A DNA stretch of 64,000 nucleotides from a virus, in the IMG/VR virus record IMGVR_UViG_3300017971_000292; one strand, given 5' to 3'. The notes under the pieces are model-generated. The model worked only from the letters and a program-made list of their open reading frames with translations. It searched no databases and was not told where the DNA came from. This document shows, one piece after another, positions 1 through 14,280 of the stretch. Position numbers and translations under genes: made by a program. The stretch's first letter is position 1. Each line of letters starts with the position of its first letter.

Positions 1-90
1 AGGCCGAGGGCCGGCTCGTAGTATTGAAGGTCACGAGACCCGTCTTGGTTGATCGATACGATTTTCTGCATAATATCTGATTGGGATTGG

Positions 91-115: not shown

Positions 116-120
116 CCCGA

Positions 121-375: not shown

Positions 376-427
376 AAGATTCAGTCGATGGTTAGAATGT
401 GTCTACGGATTTTCGTGCTGTCAACAA

Positions 428-967
428 TCAATCTTCAGTGCGGAACTGGGCAAAATCGTAGCCCGAGGCGTCGTCATATATCGGCACATCCAGGAGCTCA
501 GCCAGCCGCTCGGCGTGCTTCACGTGCTCGTACGTGTTCTCGCAGCAGCCGCACCCTTCCGAGCGCATGTAGTCGGCGACTGCCCGGCGTATGAGTGCGA
601 TGTTCGGCGGGTCGATGGGCGTCGCCCGGGGGCACTTGGGGAGGTCATCCTCCTGGCGGCCGAGCACCCATACGATGGATTTCTGCTTGGTCTCGGGTGA
701 CACGCGGGTGCCGCCATTCTGGATCTTCCCGGCCCGCAGCAGCGGCCGAAACCTGGAGCTGGCGTTGACACGCTTGACGCCCGTCCGGTTGCAGAACTCC
801 AGGGAGGTCAGCCCGTCCGGATACACCTTCTCGAGCTCCCTGAGGATCATTCGGTCGAGCCGGCCGCGAGCTCCGGACTGGTTGATGGAGGCTGCCGCCT
901 GGTGTGAGGTTGCCGGGTCGGTGCCCCGGGCGGTACTCGGTGGTCCTGCGTAGTTTGGGTCAATCAT
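428..967 (-). CDS. Hypothetical protein, possible winged-helix DNA-binding protein (179 aa)
   Basis: ORF track. The central segment LDRMILRELEKVYPDGLTSLEFCNRTGVKRVNASSRF looks like a winged helix. This is a low-confidence functional guess. Confidence 0.5.
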   Translation of the reverse strand: MIDPNYAGPPSTARGTDPATSHQAAASINQSGARGRLDRMILRELEKVYPDGLTSLEFCNRTGVKRVNASSRFRPLLRAGKIQNGGTRVSPETKQKSIVWVLGRQEDDLPKCPRATPIDPPNIALIRRAVADYMRSEGCGCCENTYEHVKHAERLAELLDVPIYDDASGYDFAQFRTED

Positions 968-1211
968 CTTTGGGTCCGGGTGCTGAGTTGTTCGCGTTAA
1001 GCGCCACGATGTACATGGCAGCCATAACCACCCCGCCCACGGCAGCCATGAGTTGGGCGTGCCCCTCGTGTCCTATCAATTGTTCAAGTGACCCTGCACA
1101 AGAGGCAAGCAAGAACACCACGGTGATTCGGTATAGTTTCGTCATTTGATTCCTGAGTGTGCGAGCCGGGAGAGTGACAGCCCTTTGTAGCATCCGTCGT
1201 GGACGCGGCAT
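960..1211 (-). CDS. Small membrane protein; the true start is probably the internal Met near 1145 (MTKLYRITVVFLLASC...)
   Basis: Two hydrophobic helices (VVFLLASCAGSL and AAVGGVVMAAMYIVAL) in the ORF-track protein. Confidence 0.4.
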   Translation of the reverse strand: MPRPRRMLQRAVTLPARTLRNQMTKLYRITVVFLLASCAGSLEQLIGHEGHAQLMAAVGGVVMAAMYIVALNANNSAPGPKDD

Positions 1212-1447
1212 GCTGCGCGGAGCCGGCGGCGGAGCCAGCTGTTCAGATACTCCTCGGCGTCGCTGTCGACGCGGGTGATCCCCTCCTCGCGGCAGATCTG
1301 CCGGAGTTGGGCCTTGTTTATGAACGCAGGCTGCGCTCGTTTTATTTCGGCGGGCATGTGATCAGTTGGATGGTGTCCTTGTAGGTTCTGCGGTAACCCC
1401 CCGCGTCGCCGATGATCTTCATTACCAGCGAGATCGGGTGCGGACAA
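1142..1447 (-). CDS. Hypothetical protein; the likely start is the internal Met near 1357
   Basis: ORF track. It is contiguous with neighbouring minus-strand genes and has no motif. Confidence 0.35.
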   Translation of the reverse strand: MSAPDLAGNEDHRRRGGLPQNLQGHHPTDHMPAEIKRAQPAFINKAQLRQICREEGITRVDSDAEEYLNSWLRRRLRAACRVHDGCYKGLSLSRLAHSGIK

Positions 1448-1584
1448 ATGTAGGTGATGTCCTCATTGCCGGGCATGACAATCACCGTACTTTTGAAGTC
1501 GTCCGATGAACTAATCGACTCGACGCCCGCGAGGTTGATCGCGATGTTCCGCCCCTCGTGCTTGTAGCATAGGAATTGGTTCAT
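1342..1584 (-). CDS. Hypothetical protein (~80 aa, start MNQFLCYKHEGRN...)
   Basis: Its ATG at 1584 sits directly after the stop of the upstream 366-aa gene (TAACATG), which suggests translational coupling. Confidence 0.45.
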   Translation of the reverse strand: MNQFLCYKHEGRNIAINLAGVESISSSDDFKSTVIVMPGNEDITYICPHPISLVMKIIGDAGGYRRTYKDTIQLITCPPK

Positions 1585-1585
1585 G

Positions 1586-2686
1586 TTACTTAGAGGCCTC
1601 GAGGGCCAGTAGGATCTCGCGGATGTAGTCGTCGGCCTGCACGACAGCGTCCTCCATACACTGACGGTCACGCGCCGGCAGTAGGCCTCCGTTCAACGCG
1701 TGGCGGTGCTGCGACTTCACCTTCTCAAGCCTCTCCTTGAAACGGACGAGCAGGCATCGCAGCATGCTGATGTGTCGCACAGTCTCTTCGTGGTCCTGGC
1801 GCGCGGGCTCGCGGTCATCTTTGATGGCCTGCAGCTGCTTGTTAGCCGCGTCACGCTCCTCTGCGATCTTGTGCTTGGCGTCACGTAGATCGGTCAGCAA
1901 CATGTCGTAACGCGTCTTGGGGGCCGTGCGGGATATGCCGAGAGCGGCGATGGCGAGCAGCCTCTTGCGGGCCTTCAGCGCACGCTTACGAGCTTCAGAA
2001 CCTATGTCGGTACCATGTTTGTGGAGCATCCTGATAGAGAACTTGAAGTGGTCCCGCAGCACCGTCAACGCGTGACGTTGACTGGCGACCTGGATCCGCA
2101 GGTTGTCACACTCATCCATCGACGAGTCGAGCCTCTTGTTAGCCTCGTTGACCTGGGCTTCGGCATCCGTCAGATCGCGTCGCACATCCTCCAGTGCTCG
2201 CTTGTTGCACAACGCTGCGTCCCTCTCCACCATCGCCTCAACTTCCGCCCTGTGCTTCTCGCTCTTGAGCACCTTGATCTCGTCCGACTGGTCTCGAACC
2301 CGCTTGGCATTCTCAAACGCCATTTCAGCAGCCTCTACAGTCTTGCCGTTGATGGCCTCGCCGTTCTCCCCGAAGGAGACTTCGACTACGTGTAGGAACG
2401 TGCCGGACCTCTTATTCAGCTTCTCAATATAGTCCTTGAGCTCGGCCCGCATCTCGTCAGCGTAGGTAGAGGGAGCCCACCCTTCTTTGCTGCCGTCAGG
2501 CAATACTGCAAACGAGCAGTAGCCATTACAATATCCGTACATCACAGCTGTGAGCGGGAGGACATAGTGGGTGGTGCTGGTCTCGACGTCCCTGAGGAAG
2601 AGCCTTTCGGCAAAGCTGTGCGCCTTGTTCACGTCGCTCCTGTCGGATCCGATTACTATCATTGCATCGTGCTGGATGGTTCCCAT
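1586..2686 (-). CDS. Hypothetical protein with a long coiled-coil C-terminal half (366 aa)
   Basis: Long ORF. The N-terminal part is globular (~130 aa). The remainder is rich in E/K/R/A/L heptad-like sequence. Confidence 0.7.
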   Translation of the reverse strand: MGTIQHDAMIVIGSDRSDVNKAHSFAERLFLRDVETSTTHYVLPLTAVMYGYCNGYCSFAVLPDGSKEGWAPSTYADEMRAELKDYIEKLNKRSGTFLHVVEVSFGENGEAINGKTVEAAEMAFENAKRVRDQSDEIKVLKSEKHRAEVEAMVERDAALCNKRALEDVRRDLTDAEAQVNEANKRLDSSMDECDNLRIQVASQRHALTVLRDHFKFSIRMLHKHGTDIGSEARKRALKARKRLLAIAALGISRTAPKTRYDMLLTDLRDAKHKIAEERDAANKQLQAIKDDREPARQDHEETVRHISMLRCLLVRFKERLEKVKSQHRHALNGGLLPARDRQCMEDAVVQADDYIREILLALEASK

Positions 2687-2708
2687 TCTGATTTACTTTT
2701 TTCTATGG

Positions 2709-2870
2709 TTAGTGTTTGGGGTGGGTCAAAGTTTCTCGCTCGGGCACACGGGTCACCTTATACCCGCGCCGCCTATACGCCTGGATCTCCGCCTTCACGT
2801 TGGTGGAATACCACCGTTTGGAGTCCGGGAACCACACGTAGTAGAGCTCAGCTGTGTATTTATTCATGGT
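2709..2870 (-). CDS. Small hypothetical protein (53 aa, MNKYTAELYYVWFPDSKRWYSTNVKAEIQAYRRRGYKVTRVPERETLTHPKH)
   Basis: Hand-translated ORF below the 60-aa track cutoff. Its ATG overlaps the stop of the upstream gene (coupled). Confidence 0.4.
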   Translation of the reverse strand, partial: TMNKYTAELYYVWFPDSKRWYSTNVKAEIQAYRRRGYKVTRVPERETLTHPKH

Positions 2871-3041
2871 CGTTGAGTTGTTCCTTCATCGATAGGTTGG
2901 CCCGGCGGAGCCGGTGCCGTCGACCGAGGGCACAATAGGGGCAGGACCCGTGGACTCGGCATGTAGCGTCAAGCGCCTTGGTTCCACGGTACGGCTTGCG
3001 CCGCTCCTTCCCGTGCTTGATGGCTTTGGCCAAACTCATTT
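2860..3041 (-). CDS. Small Cys-rich (zinc-ribbon-like) protein (60 aa, MSLAKAIKHGKERRKPYRGTKALDATCRVHGSCPYCALGRRHR...)
   Basis: C-x4-C ... C-x2-C spacing. The start ATGA overlaps the stop of the upstream gene. Confidence 0.45.
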
Positions 3042-3215
3042 GATGATCCGGTGCAGGAAATACTCCTGGTTGTGCTCGTCCCACTTGGAGACGGTGATCG
3101 CGCGGGCCCGGCGAGGGGCGCTCAGAATGACCCGGCCCACCTGCTGGTGGGTGAGTCCTGACGTGCGACTCACGCCCTTCGCGCTTGCTATCGTTACTCG
3201 GTATTTGGCTTTCAT
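3036..3215 (-). CDS. Small basic protein, possible DNA-binding or Xis-like (59 aa, MKAKYRVTIASAKGVSRTSGLTHQQVGRVILSAPRRARAITVSKWDEH...)
   Basis: ORF-track frame with an internal ATG at 3215. The sequence is HTH-like. It lies immediately adjacent to the tRNA-like element. Confidence 0.4.
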   Translation of the reverse strand: MKAKYRVTIASAKGVSRTSGLTHQQVGRVILSAPRRARAITVSKWDEHNQEYFLHRIIK

Positions 3216-3221
3216 AAATTG

Positions 3222-3390
3222 ATTGCAGGGCGGGGAGGGGAATCGAACCCCCCTGTCAGGTCCGTTAGCCACTGATCAGGTGGCTCGTCGACCCGTTGAC
3301 CGTGTGCTGCATTGGCAGAGTAGCCAAGAGGATCAGTCCCAGCCTCTGGCAGCCGACTCACGGAGTTCCTTTCACTCAACCCGCCCATCT
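3222..3390 (-). ncRNA. tRNA-like element, minus strand. It has GGGCGGG-TT-GAGT-GAAAGGA-ACTC (acceptor plus D-arm-like) near 3390 and GGGGG-TTCGATT-CCCCT-CCCCGCCC (T-arm plus 3' acceptor) at 3256..3224. It is a non-canonical tRNA, a tRNA with an insertion, or a 3' tRNA fragment.
   Basis: A perfect T-loop consensus GTTCGATTC flanked by a 5-bp GC stem and a GC-rich acceptor-like 3' strand. A sigma70-like promoter lies ~300 nt upstream on the same strand. I could not fold a complete canonical cloverleaf by hand. Confidence 0.3.
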
Positions 3391-3711
3391 CTCACACCTG
3401 CTGTCAGGCCATTTCGGATCATTGGGGCGAGTCTATTCGACCTAAACAGCGATGCATCACTGCCCGCTACCCATTTATTCCACGTCAGCCCGTCGGCCAC
3501 GCCGAGGTCCTCACTTTACACCAGTCAAGGCTAACGGAGGATCCCCCGACGCCTGACAACAGGTGTGAGAGATGATGGTCGACCGCGCATCCCTGTAAGT
3601 GCGCCTTAGTCGCGAGCAGTCAGGCAAAGCGTGCTGCAAGGGGTAGCCTACCCATAAAGCTGGTCAATTCCAGCCTCCCGCCGACCATCAAACTGTCAAA
3701 GAACTGTAGAC

Positions 3712-3739
3712 AACCTACCACACTGAAAAGGGCTGTCAA
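3712..3739 (-). promoter_or_regulatory. Sigma70-like promoter (minus strand): TTGACA - 16 nt - TAGGTT, pointing toward the tRNA-like element
   Basis: Read directly. It shares the motif CGATTGATA(C/G)TTGACAGC with the promoter at 6131..6159. Confidence 0.5.
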
Positions 3740-3742
3740 CTA

Positions 3743-4459
3743 TCAATCGAACTTTATTTTGCACGAACGACGGACCACCCGGGCGACCGCCCACGGGTTC
3801 CACTGGAGGGCGATCAACTCATTCCATTGCCTGGCATACTCTGGCAACGCCGTGCGCGAATAGAACCGGAGCTCTGCTTCCCACTCTTGGCGGAGCCGGT
3901 AGGCGGACGCCAGTAGCGAGCTCTGGAGCGTCCGGGCGATCTCCAGCTTGGTGGCCGGGCGACAATAGCGTCCGATCCGACGCACCCACCGGTTGGGCTT
4001 GTACTCGCGCTTTGGGTGTGGGTATGGTTCGCGAAATGTACTCCGCCTGAGCTTACCAGATTGACGCTCCCGCAGCTCACGCCACGATCTCCGCCCCGCT
4101 TCCCTGAGCTCGAGCTCTCGCGCCCGTCGAACCTCTGCGGCTGCCTTCTCGGCCCTCCTCGCCTCTCGTTCCATCACGGACTTGAGGTACCACCCCTTGG
4201 TGTGCAGCTGCTTGAGCAGGTCAACAGCCTCAGTGAATTCCGGAGTCCCGACGTCGCGAAGCGTGAATGGCGCTGGCTCGGGTATGTAGTCCTTCGTCCT
4301 GCGGCCAGGAATCCATTTGCCGGGTTTGTCCTTGGGTGTGCGATAGCGGGAAAGCCCTTTGCGCTCGAACAGCAGGACCGGGAAGTCCTTGACCGAGCCC
4401 CGTAACATTGGGTCGAAGTCCCGGGTCGGATACGGATAGGTTGAGATCTTGTCTTGCAT
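3743..4459 (-). CDS. Hypothetical, highly basic Arg-rich protein (238 aa)
   Basis: Long ORF with an R/E-rich coiled region. It has no catalytic motif. Confidence 0.65.
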   Translation of the reverse strand: MQDKISTYPYPTRDFDPMLRGSVKDFPVLLFERKGLSRYRTPKDKPGKWIPGRRTKDYIPEPAPFTLRDVGTPEFTEAVDLLKQLHTKGWYLKSVMEREARRAEKAAAEVRRARELELREAGRRSWRELRERQSGKLRRSTFREPYPHPKREYKPNRWVRRIGRYCRPATKLEIARTLQSSLLASAYRLRQEWEAELRFYSRTALPEYARQWNELIALQWNPWAVARVVRRSCKIKFD

Positions 4460-4462
4460 AGG

Positions 4463-4810
4463 TCAGATATCGCTGAAGCACGCGTGACGACAGTCCGCGC
4501 AGCAGTTGCATAGGTAGATTTCGCCGTGCACATCCTCGTCGTAGGGGCACACATCAGCATCAACCTCGGGGGCACCGCACTTACACTTGCCAGTACGACG
4601 GAACGTCCAGTCATGGTGAGCCCCGACTCGAACAAGCTTACCCTGTTCCCGGAGGCCGCCCAGCGTTTGCTCACGGCAGACAAGGACCGTCTCGCCCGTG
4701 CTATTGAGCGTGGCCACCCCCACCTTGTTGTGCCCCGGGAAGATCTTGATCGGGAGCGCGCCCGCGTGGGTACCCACGAGAGTCATCAGCTTACGTTGGG
4801 TGGCCGTCAT
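4463..4810 (-). CDS. Hypothetical Cys-rich protein (115 aa; C-terminal CKCGAPE...CPYDEDVHGEIYLCNCCADCRHAC)
   Basis: ORF track. Multiple Cys pairs suggest metal binding. Its stop and start are packed tightly against neighbouring genes. Confidence 0.6.
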   Translation of the reverse strand: MTATQRKLMTLVGTHAGALPIKIFPGHNKVGVATLNSTGETVLVCREQTLGGLREQGKLVRVGAHHDWTFRRTGKCKCGAPEVDADVCPYDEDVHGEIYLCNCCADCRHACFSDI

Positions 4811-5016
4811 TGGTCACCCCGCTCTCTGGCAGCTCTCCGCTCCCTACGGGCCGCACAGGCGGCTTTGGCGGACGCTACCCTCTCGTCCTGCCTGGCATCC
4901 CAGTCGGACACGCTGATGGCCTGCTCCAGGCTTCCCATAGCCTTGGCTGAAGTCTTAGGTAAGTGAGCGACGGACAACTGTGCACTCAACCGTAAGTGTT
5001 CTTGATAGCGTCTCAT
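4807..5016 (-). CDS. Hypothetical small protein (start at internal Met MRRYQEHLRL...)
   Basis: ORF-track frame 4807..5157 trimmed to the first plausible Met. Confidence 0.3.
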   Translation of the reverse strand: MRRYQEHLRLSAQLSVAHLPKTSAKAMGSLEQAISVSDWDARQDERVASAKAACAARRERRAARERGDQ

Positions 5017-5020
5017 AGCA

Positions 5021-5218
5021 TTACATGGACAAAGGTTTCTGGTCGATAGGCCCGGTAGTCCAGAAGAGCATGCGATCCTCGGCGGCCTTCCGGTTAGTAA
5101 GCCCAATAGGGGCAGACCAGAAGAGCTTGCCGGTCGTGCTGTTGGTGACCTCCCCAAAGTAGGATCGGGGGCGGCTGTCGCTGCGCCTGCGGGCGCGGAT
5201 GGGTCGCGGTTTCTTCAT
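5021..5218 (-). CDS. Hypothetical small basic protein (MKKPRPIRARRRS...GKLFWSAPIGLTNRKAAEDRMLFWTTGPI)
   Basis: Internal Met of ORF 5021..5335. The upstream part of that ORF is S/T/R-rich and non-protein-like. Confidence 0.3.
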   Translation of the reverse strand: MKKPRPIRARRRSDSRPRSYFGEVTNSTTGKLFWSAPIGLTNRKAAEDRMLFWTTGPIDQKPLSM

Positions 5219-5219
5219 A

Positions 5220-5384
5220 TCAGTTGTTTCTGTGGATCGGTGTTCCGAGGGTGAATTCCAGACGCTTGACGTCGCGCCTGAGGTCGTCGATGACCGCCTG
5301 CTTGCCGGCCAGTTGCGTCTCGTAATAGAGGGCAACCAGAATGATGGAGAACAGGAAGATGATGATGGATGCGATGGTAGTCAT
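5220..5384 (-). CDS. Small membrane protein (MTTIASIIIFLFSIILVALYY...)
   Basis: One clear transmembrane helix followed by a charged tail. The start is trimmed to an internal Met. Confidence 0.4.
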   Translation of the reverse strand: MTTIASIIIFLFSIILVALYYETQLAGKQAVIDDLRRDVKRLEFTLGTPIHRNN

Positions 5385-5389
5385 AGTGG

Positions 5390-5506
5390 TCAGCGGTTGT
5401 TGGTTAGCTCGGTGATGCGCTTCTCGAGCCCCCCGACACGGATCTCGAGGCTGACGAAACGCCACGCATAGTAGGCGACGAGGATGAGGAATACGATAGT
5501 GTTCAT
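5390..5506 (-). CDS. Very small membrane protein (MNTIVFLILVAYYAWRFVSLEIRVGGLEKRITELTNNR)
   Basis: Hydrophobic helix plus amphipathic tail. It is short and low confidence. Confidence 0.3.
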   Translation of the reverse strand: MNTIVFLILVAYYAWRFVSLEIRVGGLEKRITELTNNR

Positions 5507-5904
5507 TCGCTGAGGGTTACGTTGTCGATGACGGAGGCCAGGTTCCCCGCGCGGAGCCGGAGCTCGGCCAGCCGGGCACGCATAGTGTCGATCTCGTGCG
5601 AGGTCCCGGAACACTGCTGCTGCACAGCACCCAAGAGCTCCTTGGCCTGCTGCTTAGCCTGGGCGATCAGCCGGTCAGCCTGGCACTTCGCCTTGTGGAC
5701 GATAGCCTGACCCTCGTTCTCACGCTCAGCCACCCAATCCTCGTGAGTGTAGGCGCGGGTCTCGACCGGCATGTCCGAGTGCATGGCCTGCTGGATATGC
5801 GGCAGCTGCTCGCGCAGCCACTGCCCGCAGTAGGAGCCGGTGTCGTGGGCACTCAGGATAGTAGCGAGTTCAGCGATGGCTCTCAGTTCTTCGTTTTTGG
5901 TCAT
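5503..5904 (-). CDS. Hypothetical protein (~133 aa from MTKNEELRAIAELATIL...)
   Basis: ORF-track frame 5503..6075 trimmed to an internal Met. It is coupled to the downstream gene. Confidence 0.5.
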   Translation of the reverse strand: MTKNEELRAIAELATILSAHDTGSYCGQWLREQLPHIQQAMHSDMPVETRAYTHEDWVAERENEGQAIVHKAKCQADRLIAQAKQQAKELLGAVQQQCSGTSHEIDTMRARLAELRLRAGNLASVIDNVTLSE

Positions 5905-5912
5905 AGTATTGG

Positions 5913-6125
5913 TTAGTTGGAGTGTGAGACGAGGTCGGAGAGATCTTTCCAAATAGCGGTCGTGGACAGGCCAAGCTCGGGGTGGTCCGCCGAAAAGCGG
6001 TCGGTCGTCCAGGTGAGCCGGGCGTGCCTGGATCCAAGCGTGATATCCGCGCAGGCTATCCGCGACGCATGCCACGTATGGAGTAGCTCGCTGACCAGCC
6101 GCTGTGGGATGAATCTCGTTGTCAT
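5913..6125 (-). CDS. Hypothetical protein (70 aa)
   Basis: ORF track. Its ATG lies 6 nt downstream of a strong sigma70-like -10 box, so the transcript may be leaderless or near-leaderless. Confidence 0.5.
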   Translation of the reverse strand: MTTRFIPQRLVSELLHTWHASRIACADITLGSRHARLTWTTDRFSADHPELGLSTTAIWKDLSDLVSHSN

Positions 6126-6130
6126 GGCGA

Positions 6131-6159
6131 TAATCTAATCGAGGTGAATAGTGCTGTCA
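6131..6159 (-). promoter_or_regulatory. Sigma70-like promoter (minus strand): TTGACA - 17 nt - TAGATT
   Basis: Read directly. It shares an extended conserved motif with the 3712..3739 promoter. Confidence 0.55.
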
Positions 6160-6214
6160 AGTATCAATCGATAGTCATTCAGCGGGAGGCCCCGTAGGGC
6201 CCCCTCCTGAAGGG

Positions 6215-7093
6215 CTACGCGTTGATGGGGGAGAGCTTAGCGCGGATGAACGCAACTTGGAGAGCCATTATGAGGGCCGCGCGATTGAACCCGGCGGCGT
6301 CGTCCGTCGTCTCCATCTTAAGGAGCGCGTCGAGCACCGTGCGGGCTTCGTCGACGGGCAGCGTGTCGTTGTGGACCGTACCATCTCGCTCGCTCCACAG
6401 GACATTCAGCTGGCTGATAGGTTGGGCGGAGTAGTCGGCGTGGTTGGTTAGGTCCTCGTCCGGCGCGCTATCCTCGCCGGCCCGCTCGTTGATCTTCTCC
6501 GCCTCATAGTCGGCCGCGTCCTGCTCATCCTGAGCGGCAGCGGCAGCCTTCTCGGCGTCGCTGATAGCCTCTTGCTCCTCCACGTCGGTCGGCCAGACCT
6601 GCACTTTGGTCGGGCGATTGCCGAATCCGAAATGCGGCTCCTTGGGCGTGATGGCCACGTTGAGTGTGATGCGGAGGTCCTTGATATCTACCTCACGCTC
6701 CATCGATGTGTCGTCGACGATCTGCGGGACACTCATCCATATCTTGTTGCCCTCGTCGGTTAGGAACAGCCCCTTGAGGGAGTCCCCGTAGGCCGTATGC
6801 ACCTCTTTGTAGTGGACGAACCGGCCGACAACCTCCTGGCGTCCTGCGCGGAGCCGGGGAGCGTTGGCGAGCTTAGCCTCCTCGGCCTGGCGGGCAGCTG
6901 TCCGCTCCTCGAACCGGTCGATCTGCTTGGCCACGCAGCGGGTATAGGCGTCGACCTGGCGTGTGCTAAACTCATCGACAGTAGCACCTTCGCGGGCCTG
7001 CCGGGTGATGTCCTGCAGGAATTCGCTCCAGTTGATGGCCGATGGATGGTCTTGGGCCCAGCTGATGGCCTCGGTGAATGATAGTGTGCTCAT
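6215..7093 (-). CDS. Hypothetical acidic protein (292 aa). It is the first gene of the leftward block.
   Basis: Long ORF, D/E-rich. The ATCCCCTaattgAGGGGAT palindrome lies ~45 nt upstream. Confidence 0.7.
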   Translation of the reverse strand: MSTLSFTEAISWAQDHPSAINWSEFLQDITRQAREGATVDEFSTRQVDAYTRCVAKQIDRFEERTAARQAEEAKLANAPRLRAGRQEVVGRFVHYKEVHTAYGDSLKGLFLTDEGNKIWMSVPQIVDDTSMEREVDIKDLRITLNVAITPKEPHFGFGNRPTKVQVWPTDVEEQEAISDAEKAAAAAQDEQDAADYEAEKINERAGEDSAPDEDLTNHADYSAQPISQLNVLWSERDGTVHNDTLPVDEARTVLDALLKMETTDDAAGFNRAALIMALQVAFIRAKLSPINA

Positions 7094-7138
7094 AGGTTAG
7101 CCTTTCAAGTAGTCGTCGATGTGGGGTTTGTTGGTGAG

Positions 7139-7157
7139 ATCCCCTAATTGAGGGGAT
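7139..7157. promoter_or_regulatory. Perfect 7-bp inverted repeat ATCCCCT-aattg-AGGGGAT (operator or 5' UTR hairpin)
   Basis: Read directly. It sits upstream of the leftward gene 6215..7093. Confidence 0.45.
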
Positions 7158-7334
7158 TCGGAAAAGTTGGGCTCGTTTAGCGCGCTACGCTTTTCGACCG
7201 GCTCCGCCGGCTCCGCTACTTGGCGCATAAACCAGCGCGCGCCTCTCAAGCTCCTTCTGATATTAACTCGTGCCATGCAGTCAAGATACGCATCTGGTGG
7301 AAAAGCGCAAGCACTTTTCTAAACTAAATTTTGG

Positions 7335-7357
7335 GCCGCGCTAGGCGCGTTTTTTGA
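7335..7357 (+). terminator. Rho-independent terminator-like hairpin GCCGCGC-TAG-GCGCG followed by TTTTTT
   Basis: GC stem plus a T6 run read directly on the plus strand. Confidence 0.5.
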
Positions 7358-7462
7358 TTTCAGGTGGGAAGGTACAGGAAGCCAACGAGTTGTAGAAATT
7401 AAGGGTCAAAAACAGTAGTGGGAATAGGTCAAATGTTTATCGGGGGAAAGCGTTGCATCTTA

Positions 7463-7560
7463 TAGGAATGAAAGTGTGAAAGAGAAATGCGTAAAAGGTC
7501 TTTACGCATTTCTCTTTCGTAAATCGTTTCCTTAGGAAAGAACTATATACTATAGGGGGA
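7463..7560 (+). repeat. Conserved ~95-bp intergenic element, copy 1. It contains a 15-bp-stem hairpin (AGAGAAATGCGTAAA...TTTACGCATTTCTCT), the palindrome TTCCTTAGGAA and the sequence CTATATACTATAGGGGGAG.
   Basis: Near-identical to the copy at 12540..12632. The 3' end matches the T7 class III promoter core ACTATAGGGAGA. Confidence 0.7.
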
Positions 7561-7993
7561 GCTGAGGGTTGTCGTTTTTACAAAATGAGTGGGTTGATTG
7601 ATCCCGGCGGAGCCGGTGACATGGGGGTGATAGGCGGAGCCGGTCGGCCGACTGCCTGGATGGGTCACCTGCAGCGGCCAGGCCACCCTCCTGCCATCCT
7701 GGGGCCCGGGAGGTCCCGAGCCCCCTCCTGCGCCGGCCGAGCCCGTAGCGGTCCATCTGGCGATCCCTAACCCCTGGAACGTGTGCCCACGCGAGACGCA
7801 AAGGCGTACCGGACATTCCCAGGGACGTCGATTAGCGTGAGATTGTCGTAAGTCGTTGATATTACGATGACTTGGGTGGACATGCCCTAAACTTGCCAAT
7901 ATGTCCCAGGTCATCAAACGCCGTGCCAGTTGGGTGTATGCCCCCAATTTTGACTTGATTGGGTGAATACACCCAACTATCTTGAGCAGACGG

Positions 7994-8010
7994 TGTGCCA
8001 CTCTGGCACA
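7994..8010. promoter_or_regulatory. Inverted repeat TGTGCCA-CTC-TGGCACA, ~23 nt upstream of the first rightward gene
   Basis: Read directly. Further TGGCAC and GTGCCA copies are nearby. Confidence 0.35.
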
Positions 8011-8032
8011 ACCGAGACATATTGGCACACTT

Positions 8033-8725
8033 ATGAGCGAACTGCATCAAAATGACCAGGCTGAGCAAAAAGAGCCATCACCCCCTCAGCAGATCACAGA
8101 CCAAGATCGCAACAAAATGCAAGGAGCGCCGCCGATGGCCGCCGCGTTCCTCACCTATATCGAGACGGGCGATCTCCTGACCACAGCCGAGCTCCACGGC
8201 ATTCCGATCAAGACGTTGACCGCCAAAGCCACGCGTGACCGATGGGCACAGCTGCGCGAGGTCGCCGTATCCAAGGGCACGCTGGCCGTCGCCCGGAGTG
8301 TGGAGCGTGGCCTGGGCCCGGACGCCGCCAAGCTTGAGTTGGTGCACCGCAATAGGGAGCGCAACTTCCGGCTGGCTGAGCAGATGCGGGATGACCTACA
8401 GGACCTCGTGCAGGGCATCCGGGATGGCTCCCTGGAGATCGAGGAAGCCAAGCTCCACAAGGGGGCTGTGATACGCTACACGCGCAAGCCCAGTATTGGG
8501 GATCGTGTCGCCCTCGTGAATTATGCCAGCCAGGTGGCCGCCCTTGGCTACACGGCCCTCGGGGACGCCCCAGCATCGCGTAGCGCCGACACAGCCGCCG
8601 GGAAGGGCCCGGGTGGGGGTGCCGGAACCGCGCCTCAAATAAACATCGTCTTGCCGTTCTCCATCGCAAAGCCGAGGGACGAGGCCGGCTCCGCCGGCTC
8701 CGCCGGGCCGGTCGTTGATGTGTAA
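8033..8725 (+). CDS. Hypothetical protein (230 aa from MSELHQ...), possible HTH DNA-binding protein
   Basis: ORF 7982..8725 trimmed to an internal Met. The segment FLTYIETGDLLTTAELHGIPIKTLTAKATRDRW is HTH-like. The C-terminus is Gly/Ala-rich. Confidence 0.55.
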   Translation: MSELHQNDQAEQKEPSPPQQITDQDRNKMQGAPPMAAAFLTYIETGDLLTTAELHGIPIKTLTAKATRDRWAQLREVAVSKGTLAVARSVERGLGPDAAKLELVHRNRERNFRLAEQMRDDLQDLVQGIRDGSLEIEEAKLHKGAVIRYTRKPSIGDRVALVNYASQVAALGYTALGDAPASRSADTAAGKGPGGGAGTAPQINIVLPFSIAKPRDEAGSAGSAGPVVDV

Positions 8726-9050
8726 GTCGTTGCCTATCAACGGTGTGTCGTCGAGGTGACGCACAACGTCAGTTATATTTAATTGGGGTCGAGGCGTTGG
8801 CTATCAACGAGTTGCGACGATCAGCGGAGCCAGGAGCAAGAGGCGTGCCAAGACGGCGAAGGAGCAGGAAGCGTGCCAGCGCGAAGCTGGGCGTTAGCGT
8901 TAACGTGATCGGTAACGAAGCACATGCCGTGCCAACCCGTAACTCGTTCCGCCCCAACCGGTTCCATCCGGGTAGCGGGAGGCTCGGCGCGCACTCACAC
9001 ACACGACTTTCACTGGATGGGGGTGCCTTCACCGGTCGTTGAAATCGGTT

Positions 9051-9090
9051 GGTTTTACTAAAACCCCAGGTTTTACTACAATAGTAAAAC
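9051..9090. promoter_or_regulatory. Operator-like cluster: direct repeat GGTTTTACTA (x2), palindrome TAAAACC-cca-GGTTTTA and perfect palindrome GTTTTACTA-caa-TAGTAAAAC
   Basis: Read directly, ~50 nt upstream of the SPFH gene. Confidence 0.55.
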
Positions 9091-9136
9091 GATCGGAGTC
9101 CCAGTTAATTAACCCCCCACCCAAAATTTTTGGAAC

Positions 9137-9700
9137 TTGGAGGGGGGTATGGGTTTACGCTATCCTCAGAAGATGCTCGAGCCGCTGATCACGTTCATCA
9201 AAGACTTCATCTGGGTATTCCGGTTTGGCAAGCAGGTCCTGGAGTACAATCGCTGCGCCTGGTTCCGGTTCGGCCGGTTCAGGGGGATCCTGCAGCCGGG
9301 CTTCCACTGGTGCTGGCCGTTCTATGTCGACACGTTCGAGGAGGTGACGGTCGTCCTCCAGACTTCCCGGTTCGCGATGCAAGACCTGGAGACCAAGGAC
9401 GATCAGAAGGTTTCGATTAAGGTTGCCGTCAAATACACAATTCCCGATCCTAAGAGATTCCTGGTGGACATCACCGACCAGGAGGACTCGTTCGAGGACG
9501 TGGTCACCGGGTGGGTCGCAGAGCAAATTGAAAAGCACACATGGAGAGAGCTACGGACAATGGAATTGCGGAAGGACCTTCTGGCGGCAGTGCGGAGGGG
9601 CACGAAGGATTTTGGGATGAAGATCTTGGCAGTGAATATCCCATCGTTCACGCGTACGCGGGGGCTCCGGTTGACTGGGATCGAGATTGGGAGCGAATGA
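9137..9700 (+). CDS. SPFH / band-7 (stomatin/prohibitin/HflKC-like) domain protein (187 aa)
   Basis: RFGKQ...PGFHWCWPFYVDTFEEVTV...QDLETKDDQKVSIKVAVKYTIPDPKRFL...VVTGWVAEQIEKHTWRELR matches the SPFH core (RFG.., PF.D, TKDN..V.VD..V.Y.I.DP). Confidence 0.75.
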   Translation: MEGGMGLRYPQKMLEPLITFIKDFIWVFRFGKQVLEYNRCAWFRFGRFRGILQPGFHWCWPFYVDTFEEVTVVLQTSRFAMQDLETKDDQKVSIKVAVKYTIPDPKRFLVDITDQEDSFEDVVTGWVAEQIEKHTWRELRTMELRKDLLAAVRRGTKDFGMKILAVNIPSFTRTRGLRLTGIEIGSE

Positions 9701-10143
9701 TGAAAGCATGCTTGATCATCGTGTCGTTGGCCCTGCTCCTGATTCTGACAGGATGCGGGAGGAGCCCGGGGAGTCTTGGGCCGAAGGTCAAGGGGTCTGA
9801 GATCAGCTACCTGATCACGGCGCATCCGGACTGGTCGTCCAAGGGGCCCGTCGTGGATCTCCACAAGGAGTACCACCTGGTGACACACGAGTGGGTGAAG
9901 GGACTTGGACGGGAATTCGGGGAGGACTGCGACGACCGCGCGGGGGAGATGTGGCGGCGGGCGGTCAACGGCCTGGGAAGGCCGGCTTTTGGGATGGTCA
10001 TCAAGCGGGACGTGGGCTATGCTCATGCTTTGAACTTTTACGTCGCCCTGGACAAAACGCTGTGGCTATACGAACCACAGACAGGGAGGCATTGGAAACC
10101 CAGCCGCGAAGAGATGTGGCTGCTTAGCTATCACTGGATATGA
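9694..10143 (+). CDS. Putative lipoprotein (MMKACLIIVSLALLLILTGC...). Its start overlaps the SPFH gene stop.
   Basis: Signal peptide with an LTGC lipobox. The ATGATGA overlap suggests coupling. Frame of ORF 9541..10143. Confidence 0.6.
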   Translation, partial: RMMKACLIIVSLALLLILTGCGRSPGSLGPKVKGSEISYLITAHPDWSSKGPVVDLHKEYHLVTHEWVKGLGREFGEDCDDRAGEMWRRAVNGLGRPAFGMVIKRDVGYAHALNFYVALDKTLWLYEPQTGRHWKPSREEMWLLSYHWI

Positions 10144-10297
10144 CGAGGAAAACCGCGATCTACACGGGGCTTGCAGCGTTCGGGGGTGTCTGCTTGCTGG
10201 TACTAATTCTCTGGGCGTCGGGGGTGTTCACCCACAACCGCACGGATTCGACGCCGGCAACGCACGTCCCCCAGGGGACCGAGGACCCGCGAGGGCT

Positions 10298-10510
10298 GTG
10301 ATGCCGTCCCCGACGTGCCTGAAGTGCGGCTGTCCGCTGCAGGTCCATTGCCCGGAGACTCCTGGCAGGCCGTGCGAGCCGGGGTATTCGGCGGGAACGA
10401 CACTTTCTGAGACGTTCGACGCGGAGACGGATATCATGGAGATGATGGCCGAGAAGAGGAAGAACGGTCTCGACCACTCTGAGATCGCAGCGCAACTGCG
10501 GGAGAGGTAG
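10298..10510 (+). CDS. Small hypothetical protein (70 aa, CLKCGCPLQVHCPE Cys cluster)
   Basis: ORF track. Confidence 0.4.
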   Translation: MMPSPTCLKCGCPLQVHCPETPGRPCEPGYSAGTTLSETFDAETDIMEMMAEKRKNGLDHSEIAAQLRER

Positions 10511-10779
10511 GTGATCGACATGCCGTGCGGGAGTAAGAAAAAGGGCGGCCGGAAGGGCCGTTGAAAAAAGCGTTTGACAATCAAGATCGTGTGGGGCACG
10601 GTCTCCTCACGATCTTTGAACTTTCCTGCGATGGGCAATGTGACTCATCAAACTAAAAATGAAGTATAACCAGAGGCAGAGTCGGATGAGAGAAGCTGGC
10701 CTGCCCGTTAGTTCTGGCAAACGTGCCGCATGAAGGCAGCTGTCGGGATGGGTTTTGAGCTACTCCATTTGTTTGGGGC

Positions 10780-11202
10780 ATGAGTCTTAAGCATTCGCCT
10801 TCACTGGGTGACCCGCGCAGGGGAAACTTTCGACCTATGGGAAGACAGACACTTATTTCGTTGAAGACGACTTGGCACATGATGGCGTGGGCTTGCCTCA
10901 CAGTCGGTGTGTTTTTGTTGGTGGTAGGAATCTCGGGAGGGCGCACCACCAGAACCATTGAGCCGGTTTCCGGAGTCCCGCACCGGCCTCTGGCGGAGCA
11001 GAGCATTCGGGAGACCCTCGAGTCCGAGGAGCCCCGGGTGGTCCTCGTTGAGCACGGGGCGTCTCACAAGGGCTACGCCTACACGCTGTTCTACGACAGG
11101 ATTTCCAGGGCGTACATCTTTCACTACCGGCAGGCGATGGTTGTCTTGCCGAAGCGGAAACGGCTGAAAGAGCCGGACCTTCTGGTTCCCCCAGAAATGT
11201 AA
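10780..11202 (+). CDS. Hypothetical membrane protein (140 aa; TM helix MAWACLTVGVFLLVVGISG)
   Basis: ORF track. The start may be the internal Met at ~10849. Confidence 0.5.
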   Translation: MSLKHSPSLGDPRRGNFRPMGRQTLISLKTTWHMMAWACLTVGVFLLVVGISGGRTTRTIEPVSGVPHRPLAEQSIRETLESEEPRVVLVEHGASHKGYAYTLFYDRISRAYIFHYRQAMVVLPKRKRLKEPDLLVPPEM

Positions 11203-11270
11203 TTTCCAGCGGCCCTTGGGCAAGGTCTACTGGACAACTAACAGATCCGCCCACCAAACACAAAGTAACT

Positions 11271-12080
11271 ATGCGTAAATTCAAACATCTACTCGGGCTG
11301 CTCCTTCTGGCAGCGTTTACCACGTCCTCGGTCTATGCAATCGACCCGCCGGACTCAATCGATGATTGCACCCTCTGTGAGATCGACCTGCAGACGATGG
11401 ACAACACGACGATCTCGTGGCTGGATAAGTGGGACGCCACTTACGAGATCTACACCAACGCCTCATGGGGCGGGATTTACCGGGAGTATGACTTCGTCTA
11501 CGCCGGGAACACCACCAACCATCTGGTTTTGGAGTTGGTGTATTACAACGTCAACCGGACAGGGAACGGGGAATACTACCACGAACGGATCGAGCGGAAG
11601 TTCTATTCGACGGTCGTCAGCGGGCAATCCCAGGGGATCAATCGATATGAGTACAAACGCGATTACATCCCGGTGACCAACCCGCAGACGCCGAATTGGA
11701 CGCTTGGCTCTGTTTACACGGTCACCTACGGACCCTCGATCCAGGCGAATTGGGACGCCGTATGGGACAGCACCACCGGGATGGGGGACGAGCTTCAGTG
11801 GGTCCGCGACACTGACGAAACTGCGACCATTGAGGAGGTTCAGAAGGTTCGTGTTGTTGAGGATTCTGAGTTCACGTTCAAAGTGAGGCCCGAGGGCACC
11901 TGCGCCCTTCAGCACCATATCTGGAAATGGGGGCGGGACGCTGACGACGCAGGCGCTTGGGTATGTTTGTCCTTCCTGACCGGAGGTGCGTGGTTGAACA
12001 CTTGGTATGGGCCGTTTTCCGCCACACCGAGTCCCAACGACAACTTCTACGCCGTCGACGGTTACTACGAACACCACTAA
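11271..12080 (+). CDS. Secreted protein with N-terminal signal peptide (269 aa)
   Basis: MRKFKHLLGLLLLAAFTTSSVYA-IDPP shows a classic n/h/c signal-peptide architecture. The protein is rich in W/Y/N/T. Confidence 0.7.
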   Translation: MRKFKHLLGLLLLAAFTTSSVYAIDPPDSIDDCTLCEIDLQTMDNTTISWLDKWDATYEIYTNASWGGIYREYDFVYAGNTTNHLVLELVYYNVNRTGNGEYYHERIERKFYSTVVSGQSQGINRYEYKRDYIPVTNPQTPNWTLGSVYTVTYGPSIQANWDAVWDSTTGMGDELQWVRDTDETATIEEVQKVRVVEDSEFTFKVRPEGTCALQHHIWKWGRDADDAGAWVCLSFLTGGAWLNTWYGPFSATPSPNDNFYAVDGYYEHH

Positions 12081-12136
12081 CCCTCGACTAAACGACTCAA
12101 CGGGCTCGGGGGTAACTCCCCGGGCCCTTTTTCTTA

Positions 12137-12516
12137 TGCAAAAACCCAAAGTCACACTCCGAGAACGCGTCATCCCTGAAGGGGCCCCCGAAGACCCAAA
12201 CCCACTGGCCGGCAGCTGGGAAACCGTAGCTGAGGTCCGCGCGGCCAGTAAGATGGTTGTCACAGACACCCTCCTGAAGTCCCCAAAGCTCGGTGAGGCG
12301 ATTAAAGACGAGGCCAGGCGTGTCGCCCTCACCGAGCTCAACAGAGAGCTCTACGGCCCCGTGGTGGCCCGGCTCCGCCGGTTACAGCAGCAGATGACGG
12401 GTCTCCACCCGACAGGTGGCGGGGATTACGAGCGATACAGAGTATTCGACCGGATTTCAGGTGAGCTCTCCACCCTATTAGCGGAGCTTGAAGACATTAG
12501 AAGCTACGTAGAGTAG
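12137..12516 (+). CDS. Hypothetical protein (126 aa from MQKPKVTLRER...). It ends with a TAG stop.
   Basis: Frame of ORF 12007..12516 trimmed to the first Met after the upstream stop. Confidence 0.5.
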
Positions 12517-12539
12517 TGGGGGAGGCATTCTATCCCTTA

Positions 12540-12632
12540 GAAACGAAAGTGTGAAAGCGAAATGCGTAAAGACCTTTTACGCATTTCTCTTTCACAAAAC
12601 GATTCCTAAGGAATAATCTATTACTATAAGGG
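12540..12632 (+). repeat. Conserved ~95-bp intergenic element, copy 2. It has the same hairpin, the palindrome TTCCTAAGGAA and the sequence CTATTACTATAAGGGCGG.
   Basis: Flanks align with copy 1. The hairpin loop and palindrome centre are inverted relative to copy 1. It is followed by the inverted pair CCGGCTCCGC ... GCGGAGCCGG. Confidence 0.7.
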
Positions 12633-12833
12633 CGGCCGGCTCCGCTGAGATTTCAAAAGCGAGACTCGGCGGAGCCGGTGAAACAGAATACGTGAAATTC
12701 ATGTTGACGCACGAGAGCCGTATCGGCTATGTTGAGGTCACGGCACAAGACCTACTACGACGTGGACACGCACGGGGCTCAGCCGAGGGAAACTGGAGTC
12801 GGGGAGACCCCACCCCGTGCGTGGTCGTAACAG

Positions 12834-13226
12834 ATGACCGAAGCATCAGTATCTCGACAACATGCTATGAACGCTCACCTTGACTTCGCGCTACCGGAAG
12901 AGCTTAGCGAGCTCAGCGAACACCTCAACGGACCTGCCTGGAAAAGTGTGGTCCTCGAGATCGACAACATCCTGAGAAACGAGCTCAAGCACGGGGATAC
13001 CGCGCGTTTCCTGTGCCCCGGCCAAGCACTTTCGTGGGTCCGCGACGAGCTCCACAAGGCGATCCAGAACTGCGGACTCGACTTACACGAGCCGACGTTC
13101 CCCGAATCCCGGACACACCCCAACCGAGTGATGATCGATCCGACGGCCAGCCCCGAGGAGATCATCAAGTCGTTTGAGCAGGTGACGCCGGAGGAACCCA
13201 ATCTCAACTGCGGTGCCGGCATTTGA
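12834..13226 (+). CDS. Hypothetical protein (130 aa)
   Basis: ORF track. Its stop overlaps the next start. Confidence 0.5.
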   Translation: MTEASVSRQHAMNAHLDFALPEELSELSEHLNGPAWKSVVLEIDNILRNELKHGDTARFLCPGQALSWVRDELHKAIQNCGLDLHEPTFPESRTHPNRVMIDPTASPEEIIKSFEQVTPEEPNLNCGAGI

Positions 13227-13471
13227 TCATGCTCAAGCAATTCATTTTCCACCCGATCCTGAGCGTGCGCTTCGCGTACTGGTCCTTCCTGGTCTGGTAC
13301 GCGAAGCGGATGCGCCTGGCGAACCTCAGCGCCTATTACGACACCCACCACGTGGACATGCCGCGTGCCCGCGCCTACCTGGACCGCCACACGGCCTGGA
13401 CGGAGCGGCAGCAGTACTGGGACATCAGGAAGTCCGACGCTGAGTCGAATCTGCACCTCGCTGAATTTTGA
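13223..13471 (+). CDS. Hypothetical protein (82 aa)
   Basis: ORF track. ATGA overlaps on both sides. Confidence 0.5.
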   Translation: MIMLKQFIFHPILSVRFAYWSFLVWYAKRMRLANLSAYYDTHHVDMPRARAYLDRHTAWTERQQYWDIRKSDAESNLHLAEF

Positions 13472-14280
13472 AGAAGAACAAGGTAGACGCATCAACAGTC
13501 CGCGCGGCCCTGCGCGTTCGCCATCGCAAGGACGTTTTTCTTGAGGAGGTGAAGAATGGCCGGAGCTATGGCAACAACCTACGCATCATGGATGCGTGGG
13601 CGATGAAGCTCAGCTGGAGTCCGGTCCGGACGATTGGTTACGAGATTAAGGTATCGAGGTCCGACTTCGTTGGAGACGAGAAGTGGCCAGAGTACCTGAA
13701 GCTCTGCCATCAGCTGTTCTTTGTCGCCCCCAAGGGTTTGATCGAGTCCAGCGAACTCCCTCCCGAGGTCGGGCTCATCGAGCTCTTGGGGACGACCAGA
13801 CTGGTGACACGCAAGAAAGCGCCGTACCGGACGGAGGTCAACGCGACGAAGGAGTTCGAGAACCTTCTACTGTATCTGGCCATGCGCTGTGGCCCCGTCG
13901 AGGAGCGGGAAGGTGTTGAAGACCGGTCCAACCGCGCGTACTGGACGAAGTGGTTGGCGGAGAAGAAGAGCGATTTTGATCTCGGCCGCTCAGTCGGCTG
14001 GGAGCTTAGGCGTCGGCTGAACAGCTTGCGGTCGCGCGAACAGGCGTTGGAGCAGCGCGAACAGGCGGTAGAAGTATCTGAAGAATTCATCAAATCACAC
14101 GGGCTCACGCCGACGAGCTACGAGTCGGTGCTGGAGTCCCAGCGCACGCGGATGAACCAAGTGTGCCCCCCGGAGTTCGAGCGAACGCTGGCGGAGCTCA
14201 AGCGACAGGTTATTAGAGCAGAGCAGGAGCTTGCTCAGGCGAGAAGAAAGGAAACCAATGGCATTACGAAATACAGTTGA
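13468..14280 (+). CDS. PD-(D/E)xK nuclease-like protein (MmcB-like family) with a coiled-coil C-terminus (270 aa)
   Basis: RIMDAWAMK ... GYEIKVSRSDF resembles D ... E-x-K motifs of the MmcB-like / PDDEXK fold. The family assignment is tentative. Confidence 0.55.
   Translation: MKKNKVDASTVRAALRVRHRKDVFLEEVKNGRSYGNNLRIMDAWAMKLSWSPVRTIGYEIKVSRSDFVGDEKWPEYLKLCHQLFFVAPKGLIESSELPPEVGLIELLGTTRLVTRKKAPYRTEVNATKEFENLLLYLAMRCGPVEEREGVEDRSNRAYWTKWLAEKKSDFDLGRSVGWELRRRLNSLRSREQALEQREQAVEVSEEFIKSHGLTPTSYESVLESQRTRMNQVCPPEFERTLAELKRQVIRAEQELAQARRKETNGITKYS

Follow-up and report, generated by a model that had tools for sequence, protein, structure and literature searches.

T4-type phages carry repeated intergenic cassettes known as PeSL (promoter-early stem-loop) and PmSL (Arbiol et al. 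2010, PMC2839356; Comeau et al. 2014, PMC4122927). In the PeSL, a stem-loop lies just 5' of a sigma70-like early promoter, and the sequences are lineage-specific (PMC4122927). Our analysis concerns two repeated elements, copy 1 (7440-7560) and copy 2 (12515-12635), in a stretch of 64,000 nt (hereafter, the window) from the IMG/VR virus record IMGVR_UViG_3300017971_000292. The cassette is a real, constrained intergenic module composed of a palindrome, a small dyad and a TATA-rich box at the head of rightward transcription units. As to its function, we tentatively favor a role as a lineage-specific, AT-rich, palindromic promoter/operator cassette that may act at the DNA level for a host sigma70-type polymerase in a PeSL-like manner.

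The two copies, approximately 120 bp each, were identical in 85% of 137 alignment columns and constituted the second-largest direct repeat in the window (family D2; 104 nt, 77% identity without gaps). The 26-nt left part, GAAAGTGTGAAAGNGAAATGCGTAAA, was found in the window at 7470 and 12545 alone when up to three mismatches were allowed, against an expectation of 0. An earlier note on this DNA had described two related intergenic elements, which these results bear out. The hairpin, the dyad and the box CTAT(A)TACTATA(G/A)GGG were common to both copies. At the core of copy 1, two arms of 18 nt each (7478-7495 and 7501-7518) were 100% complementary across a 5-nt spacing; the core of copy 2 was also a perfect inverted repeat with 18-bp arms and a 5-nt loop, and its long arms of 40 nt (12531-12570 and 12576-12615) were 78% complementary. 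Thus, the hairpin of the earlier note stands, but its stem measures 18 bp rather than 12-15 bp, and copy 2 extends to an imperfect palindrome of approximately 85 bp. Both hairpins were far more stable than shuffled controls, as DNA (copy 1, -19.1 kcal/mol, z -9.9; copy 2, -19.6 kcal/mol, z -7.7) and as RNA (-32.8 and -29.8 kcal/mol, respectively; z -5.6). By direct reading, the 5-nt loop AGGTC of copy 1 was exactly reverse-complemented to GACCT in copy 2 with the stems kept, as had been noted before, and the whole 41-bp core of copy 2 matched the reverse complement of that of copy 1 at all but one position. The small palindrome also reported earlier was in register in both copies; however, TTCCT(T/A)AGGAA was not significant on its own (two occurrences against 0.38 expected, with at least two in 10 of 100 shuffles). 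The small dyad of copy 2 had a degenerate mirror partner at the left side of the palindrome. The exact hairpin pattern had no match in viral contigs or in 185,579 species genomes and, because it was absent from the latter, the cassette is not a host repeat.

The gene layout confirmed that copy 1 starts the rightward block and that copy 2 lies between rightward genes, as described earlier. Genes were oriented leftward from 1 to 7228 and between 49.2 and 64 kb, and those in the stretch between 8033 and about 49.3 kb were oriented rightward. Copy 1 was located within the 800-nt divergent gap and copy 2 between the rightward genes 12136-12516 and 12834-13226, and each headed one rightward early gene block (8033-12516 and 12834 onward, respectively). 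The next start codons were approximately 470 nt (copy 1) and 200 nt (copy 2) away, each with a promoter of its own; alignment with homologues set the true start codon of gene 8033-8725 at 8033.

Four sister lineages (59-82% protein identity) were recovered through homologues of the gene after copy 1, and one extra contig through the gene after copy 2. Four lineages had two copies each, alike in position and architecture, with a different hairpin sequence in the three related ones. In one lineage, represented at the copy 1 position by locus L021 and at the copy 2 position by locus L020, the arms GTGTAAATGTAAATCGAG / CTCGATTTACATTTACAC were followed by TATAGA...CCCCTATAGTCCCC; in another (L024 for copy 1 and L149 for copy 2), the same plan was seen with CATTATAATAGA..TATATA(C)TATA. 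The copy-2 versions in all three lineages were imperfect palindromes of 85-105 bp. Pieces of the TATA box also occurred elsewhere, TATATACTATA in L149 and TATATACT in L149 and the distant locus L014. When CCCCTATAGTCCCC was used as a query against viral contigs, it proved too unspecific, all 120 loci being chance matches. The distant relatives L014, L012 and L007 (56-64% in the terminase) had a single palindromic island of 8-10% GC at the copy-2 position, between the homologue of gene 8033 and the terminase, and the islands were followed by sigma70-like promoters identified by eye (TTGACA-17-TATATT, TTGCAC-17-TACAGT and TTGTAA-17-TACGCT, respectively).

Since the long palindromy was kept while the arm sequence differed between lineages, the constraint appears to be on symmetry or structure. 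The two copies within a genome were 73-79% alike in the right half and 66-79% in the left half, which exceeds the likeness of positional counterparts across lineages (57-66% and 62-72%, respectively) and shows concerted evolution of the copies. The earlier note had read the loop reversal as a sign of selection on structure; the palindrome was indeed kept with changed arms, but the flip itself is neutral and has recurred. In a second, independent case, the inner 24-nt segment CCTTGATAG(G/C)CAACGACTTACG was inverted in L018 relative to L021, bounded by the 8-bp arms ATTTACAG / CTGTAAAT, outside which the sequences aligned forward. Recurrent flips are expected from palindrome-mediated template switching or antiparallel gene conversion, so the loop flip requires no selection, and both the reversed loop and the reversed dyad center are neutral products of inversion within the palindrome or of antiparallel gene conversion between the copies. 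Kelchner and Wendel are said to have described in 1996 minute inversions at hairpins in chloroplast non-coding DNA, in which, as here, a loop between short inverted repeats flips repeatedly and independently while the stems are unchanged; however, such inversions account for the reversal of the loop and center only, not for the function of the cassette. The cassettes provide a clean natural case of recurrent palindrome-loop inversion.

Reading the sequence in terms of a promoter/operator, we infer protein binding, promoter activity, a start site and a regulatory outcome along the following lines. The arms (TTTAC/GTAAA and TTCACA motifs, which are -35-like) and the dyad TTCCTNAGGAA would bind a dimeric phage or host regulator, and the arms may form a cruciform. 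The TATA-rich box (TATACT / TACTAT, then a G run) would serve as the -10 and start of a weak or activator-dependent host-polymerase promoter, and copies of a 10-mer, GCGGAGCCGG, placed in dyad symmetry on both sides (see below), would bind a second factor. In this way, the cassette would set or time transcription into the two blocks from a position 5' of the ordinary promoters at 7955 and 12704. The conserved box seems to fit a -10/start that needs an activator at the dyad approximately 27 bp upstream better than it fits a plain sigma70 promoter. The earlier note had proposed an operator or terminator joined to a promoter; that proposal is close to our preferred explanation.

Like PeSLs, the cassette appears to combine a repeated intergenic stem-loop with a sigma70-like promoter just 3' of it, or with an activator box and a -10; its upstream portion is AT-rich, its stem and its promoter each have a sequence particular to the phage lineage, and the early region around it is variable, with genes that are not the same in all close relatives. 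The differences are that the window has two copies rather than dozens, that the stem, an AT-rich perfect palindrome of 18-21 bp nested in an imperfect one of approximately 85 bp, is unlike the short terminator-like stem of PeSLs, and that no Shine-Dalgarno sequence or start codon follows, but 70-400 nt of non-coding DNA with GCGGAGCCGG boxes up to the -35 of a second promoter. The promoter quality in copy 1 is also poor. If the promoter/operator explanation is correct, repeated stem-loop-plus-promoter cassettes exist outside the T4 group and can evolve in concert within a genome, with palindromy kept and sequence changed.

Sigma70-type sites were scored with our own approximate position-weight matrix (PWM). 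The window contained 43 strong matches, 27 of which fell outside the gene calls that cover more than 90% of it. Because sigma70 sites were enriched between genes and no RNA polymerase or sigma gene was detected among the ORFs scanned, the phage appears to use host polymerase throughout. A -35/-10 pair overlay the right arm of the palindrome in every lineage, namely TTTACG-17-TATAAT in L149 (PWM score 14.6), TTTACA-17-TATAGA in both L020 and L021 (9.5) and TTAACA-17-TATAGA in L018 (9.2), with scores of 11.9 in copy 2 and only 8.2 in copy 1.

Several observations nevertheless weigh against a promoter/operator role. Copy 1 had weak sigma70 matches in both directions (8.2 rightward and 9.0 leftward), and the hexamers that give copy 2 its good score fell exactly where the two copies differ; because of this position, the sigma70 promoter of copy 2 is not what the copies conserve. 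For the conserved TATA box, no proper -35 was present at 16-18 bp. Sigma70-like matches arise easily in AT-rich DNA, the scoring matrix is approximate, and both blocks already have conserved promoters of their own downstream (at 7955 and 12704). No regulator gene was found among the genes next to the cassettes. Moreover, an AT-rich palindrome with flanking repeated boxes suits a replication origin about as well.

The 10-mer GCGGAGCCGG occurred 34 times in the window (e.g., at 325, 2905, 7607, 7634, 12636, 12669, 58191 and 58224), where fewer than one occurrence is expected by estimate, and a related 12-mer gave 18 matches against 0.83 expected. The boxes were mostly inside genes (29/34, in all three reading frames), and four of the five intergenic ones lay just right of the two cassettes. 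Within the leftward gene blocks, 14 of 15 boxes were on the top strand, that is, with the GGA strand as template; orientation relative to transcription was 20:9. Around both cassettes, the 10-mer read on the bottom strand in boxes to the left and on the top strand in boxes to the right, in the window as well as in L018, L020, L021 and L024. At the site of the inverted box pair right of copy 2, L020 and L149 had one box on the + strand. The close lineages (L018-L025 and L149) had the box, whereas L026 and the distant relatives contained almost none (0-1 each). The boxes were rejected as per-gene promoters, since they were not sited near gene starts.

In its full form, CCGGC-GGA-GCCGG, the box has a 5-bp stem and a GGA loop. 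The full stem was present in only about 9-11 boxes, the heptamer GCGGAGC was present in 34/34, and the invariant part was the asymmetric 10-mer. The virion-polymerase promoter hairpin of phage N4, GAAGC-GGA-GCTTC, has the core GCGGAGC (PMC13492108, PMC4496689), and GCGGAGC is an ultra-stable GNA-loop mini-hairpin of the kind found at the G4 and RSF1010 priming sites (PMC13037366). The boxes in their full form, as distinct from the big hairpin, share with N4 early promoters the 5-bp stem, the GGA loop and the identical heptamer; however, the 34 boxes are mostly inside genes, they have no A4 spacer, and no virion polymerase was detectable. We take the resemblance as a lead rather than a classification. 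The stoperators of cluster A mycobacteriophages, 13-bp asymmetric repressor sites present in about 24-36 copies per genome, are similar as short asymmetric motifs with about 30 copies per genome and a partial strand bias. They differ from the boxes in that 29 of the 34 boxes are inside genes in all three frames, the orientation relative to transcription is only 20:9, and no repressor is known here.

A replication origin, though rather unlikely, is the main alternative to a promoter/operator; in such an origin, the AT-rich palindrome would be an unwinding or cruciform element and the GCGGAGCCGG boxes would be initiator iterons or single-strand priming signals. Two origins in one genome have precedents in phage SPP1 (oriL and oriR) and herpes simplex virus (HSV; oriL and oriS), although two near-identical origins 5 kb apart would be unusual. 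Dyad-symmetric boxes flanked both palindromes in the window and in four relatives, the two or three direct boxes right of copy 1 were spaced 21-34 bp apart in an iteron-like manner in four lineages, and four of the five intergenic boxes adjoined the cassettes; however, 30 of the 34 boxes were away from the cassettes, 29 of these within genes. Copy 1 lies in the divergent gap beside a leftward operon that leads into replication genes (a helicase-like open reading frame [ORF] with a weak Herpes_ori_bp match, DNA polymerase A and primase-helicase), but no initiator gene was identified, and the minimum of the cumulative GC skew, which is uninformative as an origin test, was at about 4.9 kb and thus at neither cassette. 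The islands of 8-10% GC at the same place in distant relatives also favor an origin, whereas transcription control would account equally well for a site directly 5' of promoters in every relative. Mini-hairpins of the GCGGAGC type are known at priming sites, and the RSF1010 oriV has two GNA-loop mini-hairpin priming sites (PMC13037366). The cassettes resemble HSV oriS/oriL and RSF1010 oriV (ssiA/ssiB) in having an AT-rich palindrome, inverted boxes on both sides, more than one copy per genome and boxes of the mini-hairpin type; the difference is that here the boxes are also scattered genome-wide. With a smaller probability than an origin, the palindromes and boxes together could form a hairpin-DNA signaling system outside the N4 family, in which the boxes would be extruded as GNA-loop mini-hairpins with a core identical to that of the N4 virion-polymerase promoter, and the palindrome that they flank, which melts easily, would drive their extrusion or the unwinding of the DNA. 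The primase-helicase of the phage might act as the reader of this system, as might a highly divergent polymerase encoded by the 2060-aa or the 961-aa ORF. These two large unassigned ORFs had no PDB-sequence match at E-values up to 1 in a set that includes the T7 and N4 polymerases. Such a system, if it exists, would amount to a novel type of phage origin or promoter, present about 34 times per genome with a strand bias, and if the box proves to be a hairpin signal, hairpin-DNA recognition would reach beyond the N4 family. The more unusual item is this box itself, which has 34 copies, the core of the N4 promoter and a symmetric arrangement about the two cassettes.

RNA-level and recombination-only roles are less likely than promoter/operator or origin roles. 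At the RNA level, a hairpin in read-through transcripts could be an RNase III site, a transcript-end stabilizer or an insulating terminator without a U tract, which we regard as improbable. The 18-21-bp stem would suit RNase III, the hairpin folds strongly as RNA (-30 to -33 kcal/mol, z -5.6), copy 2 sits where one transcription unit would be expected to end and the next to begin, with a rightward gene on each side, and the big palindrome of L012 has A and T runs on either side like a two-way terminator. However, no U tract followed either copy, while ordinary terminators exist at 7337 and 12102; no rightward transcription was evident into copy 1, past the divergent junction and the 7337 (+) terminator; and the "loop" of L021 and L018 was about 80 nt long with additional inverted motifs. 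The regulatory RNA offered as an alternative in the earlier note received no support from Rfam, in which nothing reached the gathering threshold and only generic microRNA-like hairpins appeared at E-values up to 1. An intrinsic terminator was rejected because there is no T tract: the stem is AT-rich, it is not followed by a T run on one strand or the other, and the terminator scan picked 7337 and 12102, not the cassettes. A comparably low likelihood attaches to the cassettes as recombination substrates, whether as sites of a site-specific recombinase or as direct repeats on either side of the 5-kb early block that would bring about its shuffling, a role proposed for PeSLs, for which deletion between tandem copies has been published (PMC4122927). 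Gene content between the copies does vary (in L018, L019 and L023, additional ORFs of 162 and 122 aa are present and a 79-aa ORF is inserted), the two copies show concerted evolution, and distant relatives appear to hold one island per locus. Against this, the proteins scanned included no recombinase or integrase, and the direct flanks with only the core loop flipped do not fit inversion of a 5-kb segment; recombination would explain the history of the cassettes but not the upkeep of the palindrome, dyad and boxes. Least probable by far is the earlier idea that a T7-like single-subunit RNA polymerase uses the 3' end, ACTATAGGGGGAG, as its promoter and starts at the GGG. By direct reading, copy 1 matched the T7 phi10 core at 11 of 12 positions, as stated in the earlier note, and is located at the beginning of the rightward block; however, the match fell to 8/12 in copy 2, with A in place of the T7 +1 G, and to 15/23 when copy 1 was compared with the full T7 consensus, to which no site in the window came within three mismatches. 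T7-group promoters span 23 bp, from -17 to +6. The cassette shares with them the string ACTATAGGG and, in copy 1, a G-rich start region, but its upstream specificity region is unmatched, and it has only two copies instead of a consensus of approximately 23 bp in many copies. The string itself is lost in copy 2 and in the relatives, which have CCCCTATAGTCCCC, TATATAGAGAGGGGG or TATATACTATATGACGGG there. ACTATAGG occurred at chance frequency (two sites against 0.42 expected), and the further copy without a hairpin near 61840, to which the earlier note had pointed, carries no weight because at least two occurrences were reached in 8 of 100 shuffles. No cognate polymerase gene was found either: ORFs larger than 600 aa had no match to RNA_pol (PF00940) or another polymerase, and Pfam, PHROGs and PDB-sequence searches of all ORFs >600 aa and most mid-size ORFs gave no single-subunit RNA polymerase, although a very divergent enzyme could escape them. 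This agrees with the earlier statement that the window has none, and with no such gene detected in about 66 of 67 kb and a string that is not conserved, the promoter assigned to such an enzyme is largely refuted; its resemblance to the T7 promoter is most likely coincidental.

The coordinates of the cassettes, the flanking boxes and the neighboring promoters are given in the table.

Table. Features of the two cassettes and their surroundings (strand: +, rightward; -, leftward; a point, not stranded).
Feature	Position	Strand	Remarks
Copy 1, entire conserved stretch	7440..7560	.	85% identity to copy 2; direct repeat D2
Copy 1, core palindrome	7478..7518	.	Arms GAAAGAGAAATGCGTAAA / TTTACGCATTTCTCTTTC, loop AGGTC
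Copy 1, small dyad TTCCTTAGGAA	7528..7538	.	In register with copy 2; candidate operator/activator site, ~27 bp 5' of the G run
Copy 1, TATA box CTATATACTATAGGGGG	7543..7559	+	Contains the -10-like hexamers TATACT and TACTAT and the T7-like ACTATAGGG
Copy 2, entire conserved stretch	12515..12635	.	From alignment and direct-repeat family
Copy 2, extended imperfect palindrome	12531..12615	.	~85 bp; core arms 12553-12570 / 12576-12593, loop GACCT
Copy 2, small dyad TTCCTAAGGAA	12603..12613	.	Within the spacer of the rightward sigma70-like site
Copy 2, TATA box CTATTACTATAAGGG	12618..12632	+	From reading and alignment with copy 1
Sigma70-like TTCACA-17-TAATCT, right arm of copy 2	12591..12619	+	PWM 11.9; not kept in copy 1, so weak as a conserved function
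Sigma70-like TTCACA-17-TAGAAT, left arm of copy 2	12527..12555	-	10/12 consensus, PWM 14.6; antisense to gene 12136-12516, function doubtful
Two overlapping GCGGAGCCGG boxes left of copy 1	7198..7216	-	Same side and orientation in L021, L018 and L024
Two GCGGAGCCGG boxes right of copy 1	7607..7643	+	7607-7616 and 7634-7643; 2-3 boxes in L021, L018 and L024, spaced 21-34 bp
GCGGAGCCGG box left of copy 2	12369..12378	-	Inside gene 12136-12516; L020 has two in the same orientation
Inverted box pair right of copy 2	12636..12678	.	CCGGCTCCGC at 12636, GCGGAGCCGG at 12669; 14-nt arms, 93%
Probable promoter of gene 8033-8725, TTGATT-17-TATCTT	7955..7983	+	PWM 13.1; promoter and palindrome conserved in L026
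Host-type promoter of the next block, TTGACG-18-TATGTT	12704..12733	+	~70 nt after copy 2; TTGACG-18-TATCTT in L020, TTGACG-18-TACGGT in L149 (by eye)

Some further observations concern the two control regions. A palindrome, TTGGGTGAATACACCCAA, filled the spacer of the promoter at 7955 (7959-7976) and occurred twice in L026 (378-395 and 408-425); it looks like a classic operator. A motif of approximately 20 nt, GTAAGTCGTTG(C/G)CTATCAAC, recurred 3' of gene 8033-8725 (8722-8745 and 8797-8812 in the window) and was also present in the large copy 1 loop of L018 (1395-1418) and L021 (598-621), in opposite orientations. The divergent gap contained a rightward sigma70-like site, TGGAAA-16-TAAACT, followed approximately 10 nt on by the canonical terminator CGCGCTAGGCGCG plus T6 (7298-7355), from which the transcript would be tiny. 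L017, a Logan contig of 5106 bp (SRR6963591), began within the copy 1 hairpin and ended within the copy 2 hairpin; short-read assemblers break at the cassette repeat, and many metagenomic contigs of this phage group are likely cut at the cassettes. The window also encodes an endonuclease VII, a junction- and cruciform-cutting enzyme (39284-39730, +; E-value 2e-16), for which an extruded 41-bp perfect palindrome would be a substrate.

The window is an almost complete phage genome of approximately 67 kb, about 66 kb of which are covered by the window and locus L016 together. An identical contig of the Joint Genome Institute (JGI) was found; the longest contig measured 66,974 bp, and the contigs of relatives were 65-67 kb. 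The genes identified included an SU10-type portal, capsid and adaptor, the large terminase, DNA polymerase A, a primase-helicase and helicases, and the phage is lytic-looking. It belongs to an undescribed group with about 60% GC and genomes of approximately 65-67 kb from saline and estuarine metagenomes, for which the control regions should be useful as annotation anchors. A megablast search of 6000-14000 against the phage database gave no match, and the capsid protein had relatives at 22-25% identity only. The terminase had no relatives in genomes and hence gave no host assignment, two metagenome scans added nothing new, and a tRNA scan found none.

Neither a sigma factor nor a small polymerase subunit was recognized in the mid-size ORFs that were scanned. 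The 2060-aa ORF (42300-48482, +), at the end of the virion module, had no Pfam, PHROG or PDB-sequence match and no polymerase signal; it contained an HExxH motif and a methyltransferase-like GxGxG motif, and its C-terminal ~550 aa were common to "large polyvalent proteins" of 2.7-3.5 kaa. An AlphaFold model of its C-terminal 600 aa, with a mean predicted local distance difference test score (pLDDT) of 43, looked alpha/beta and was too poor for a fold search. Two leftward ORFs (51124-51591 and 61152-61793) comprised one with the N-terminal domain of a dATP/dGTP diphosphohydrolase (PF18909, E-value 3e-26) and the other a deoxynucleotide 5'-nucleotidase (NT5C), a hint of nucleotide-pool editing or of a modified base in the phage DNA. 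Two tandem repeats were also found: a 12-nt unit repeated eight times (26740-26872) encodes PEAK/PEPE repeats within ORF 26571-27773, which is probably a scaffold-like protein, and the 7-nt unit TTTTTGG is repeated five times (58429-58462) in the gap between the leftward genes 57328-58422 and 58469-59755.

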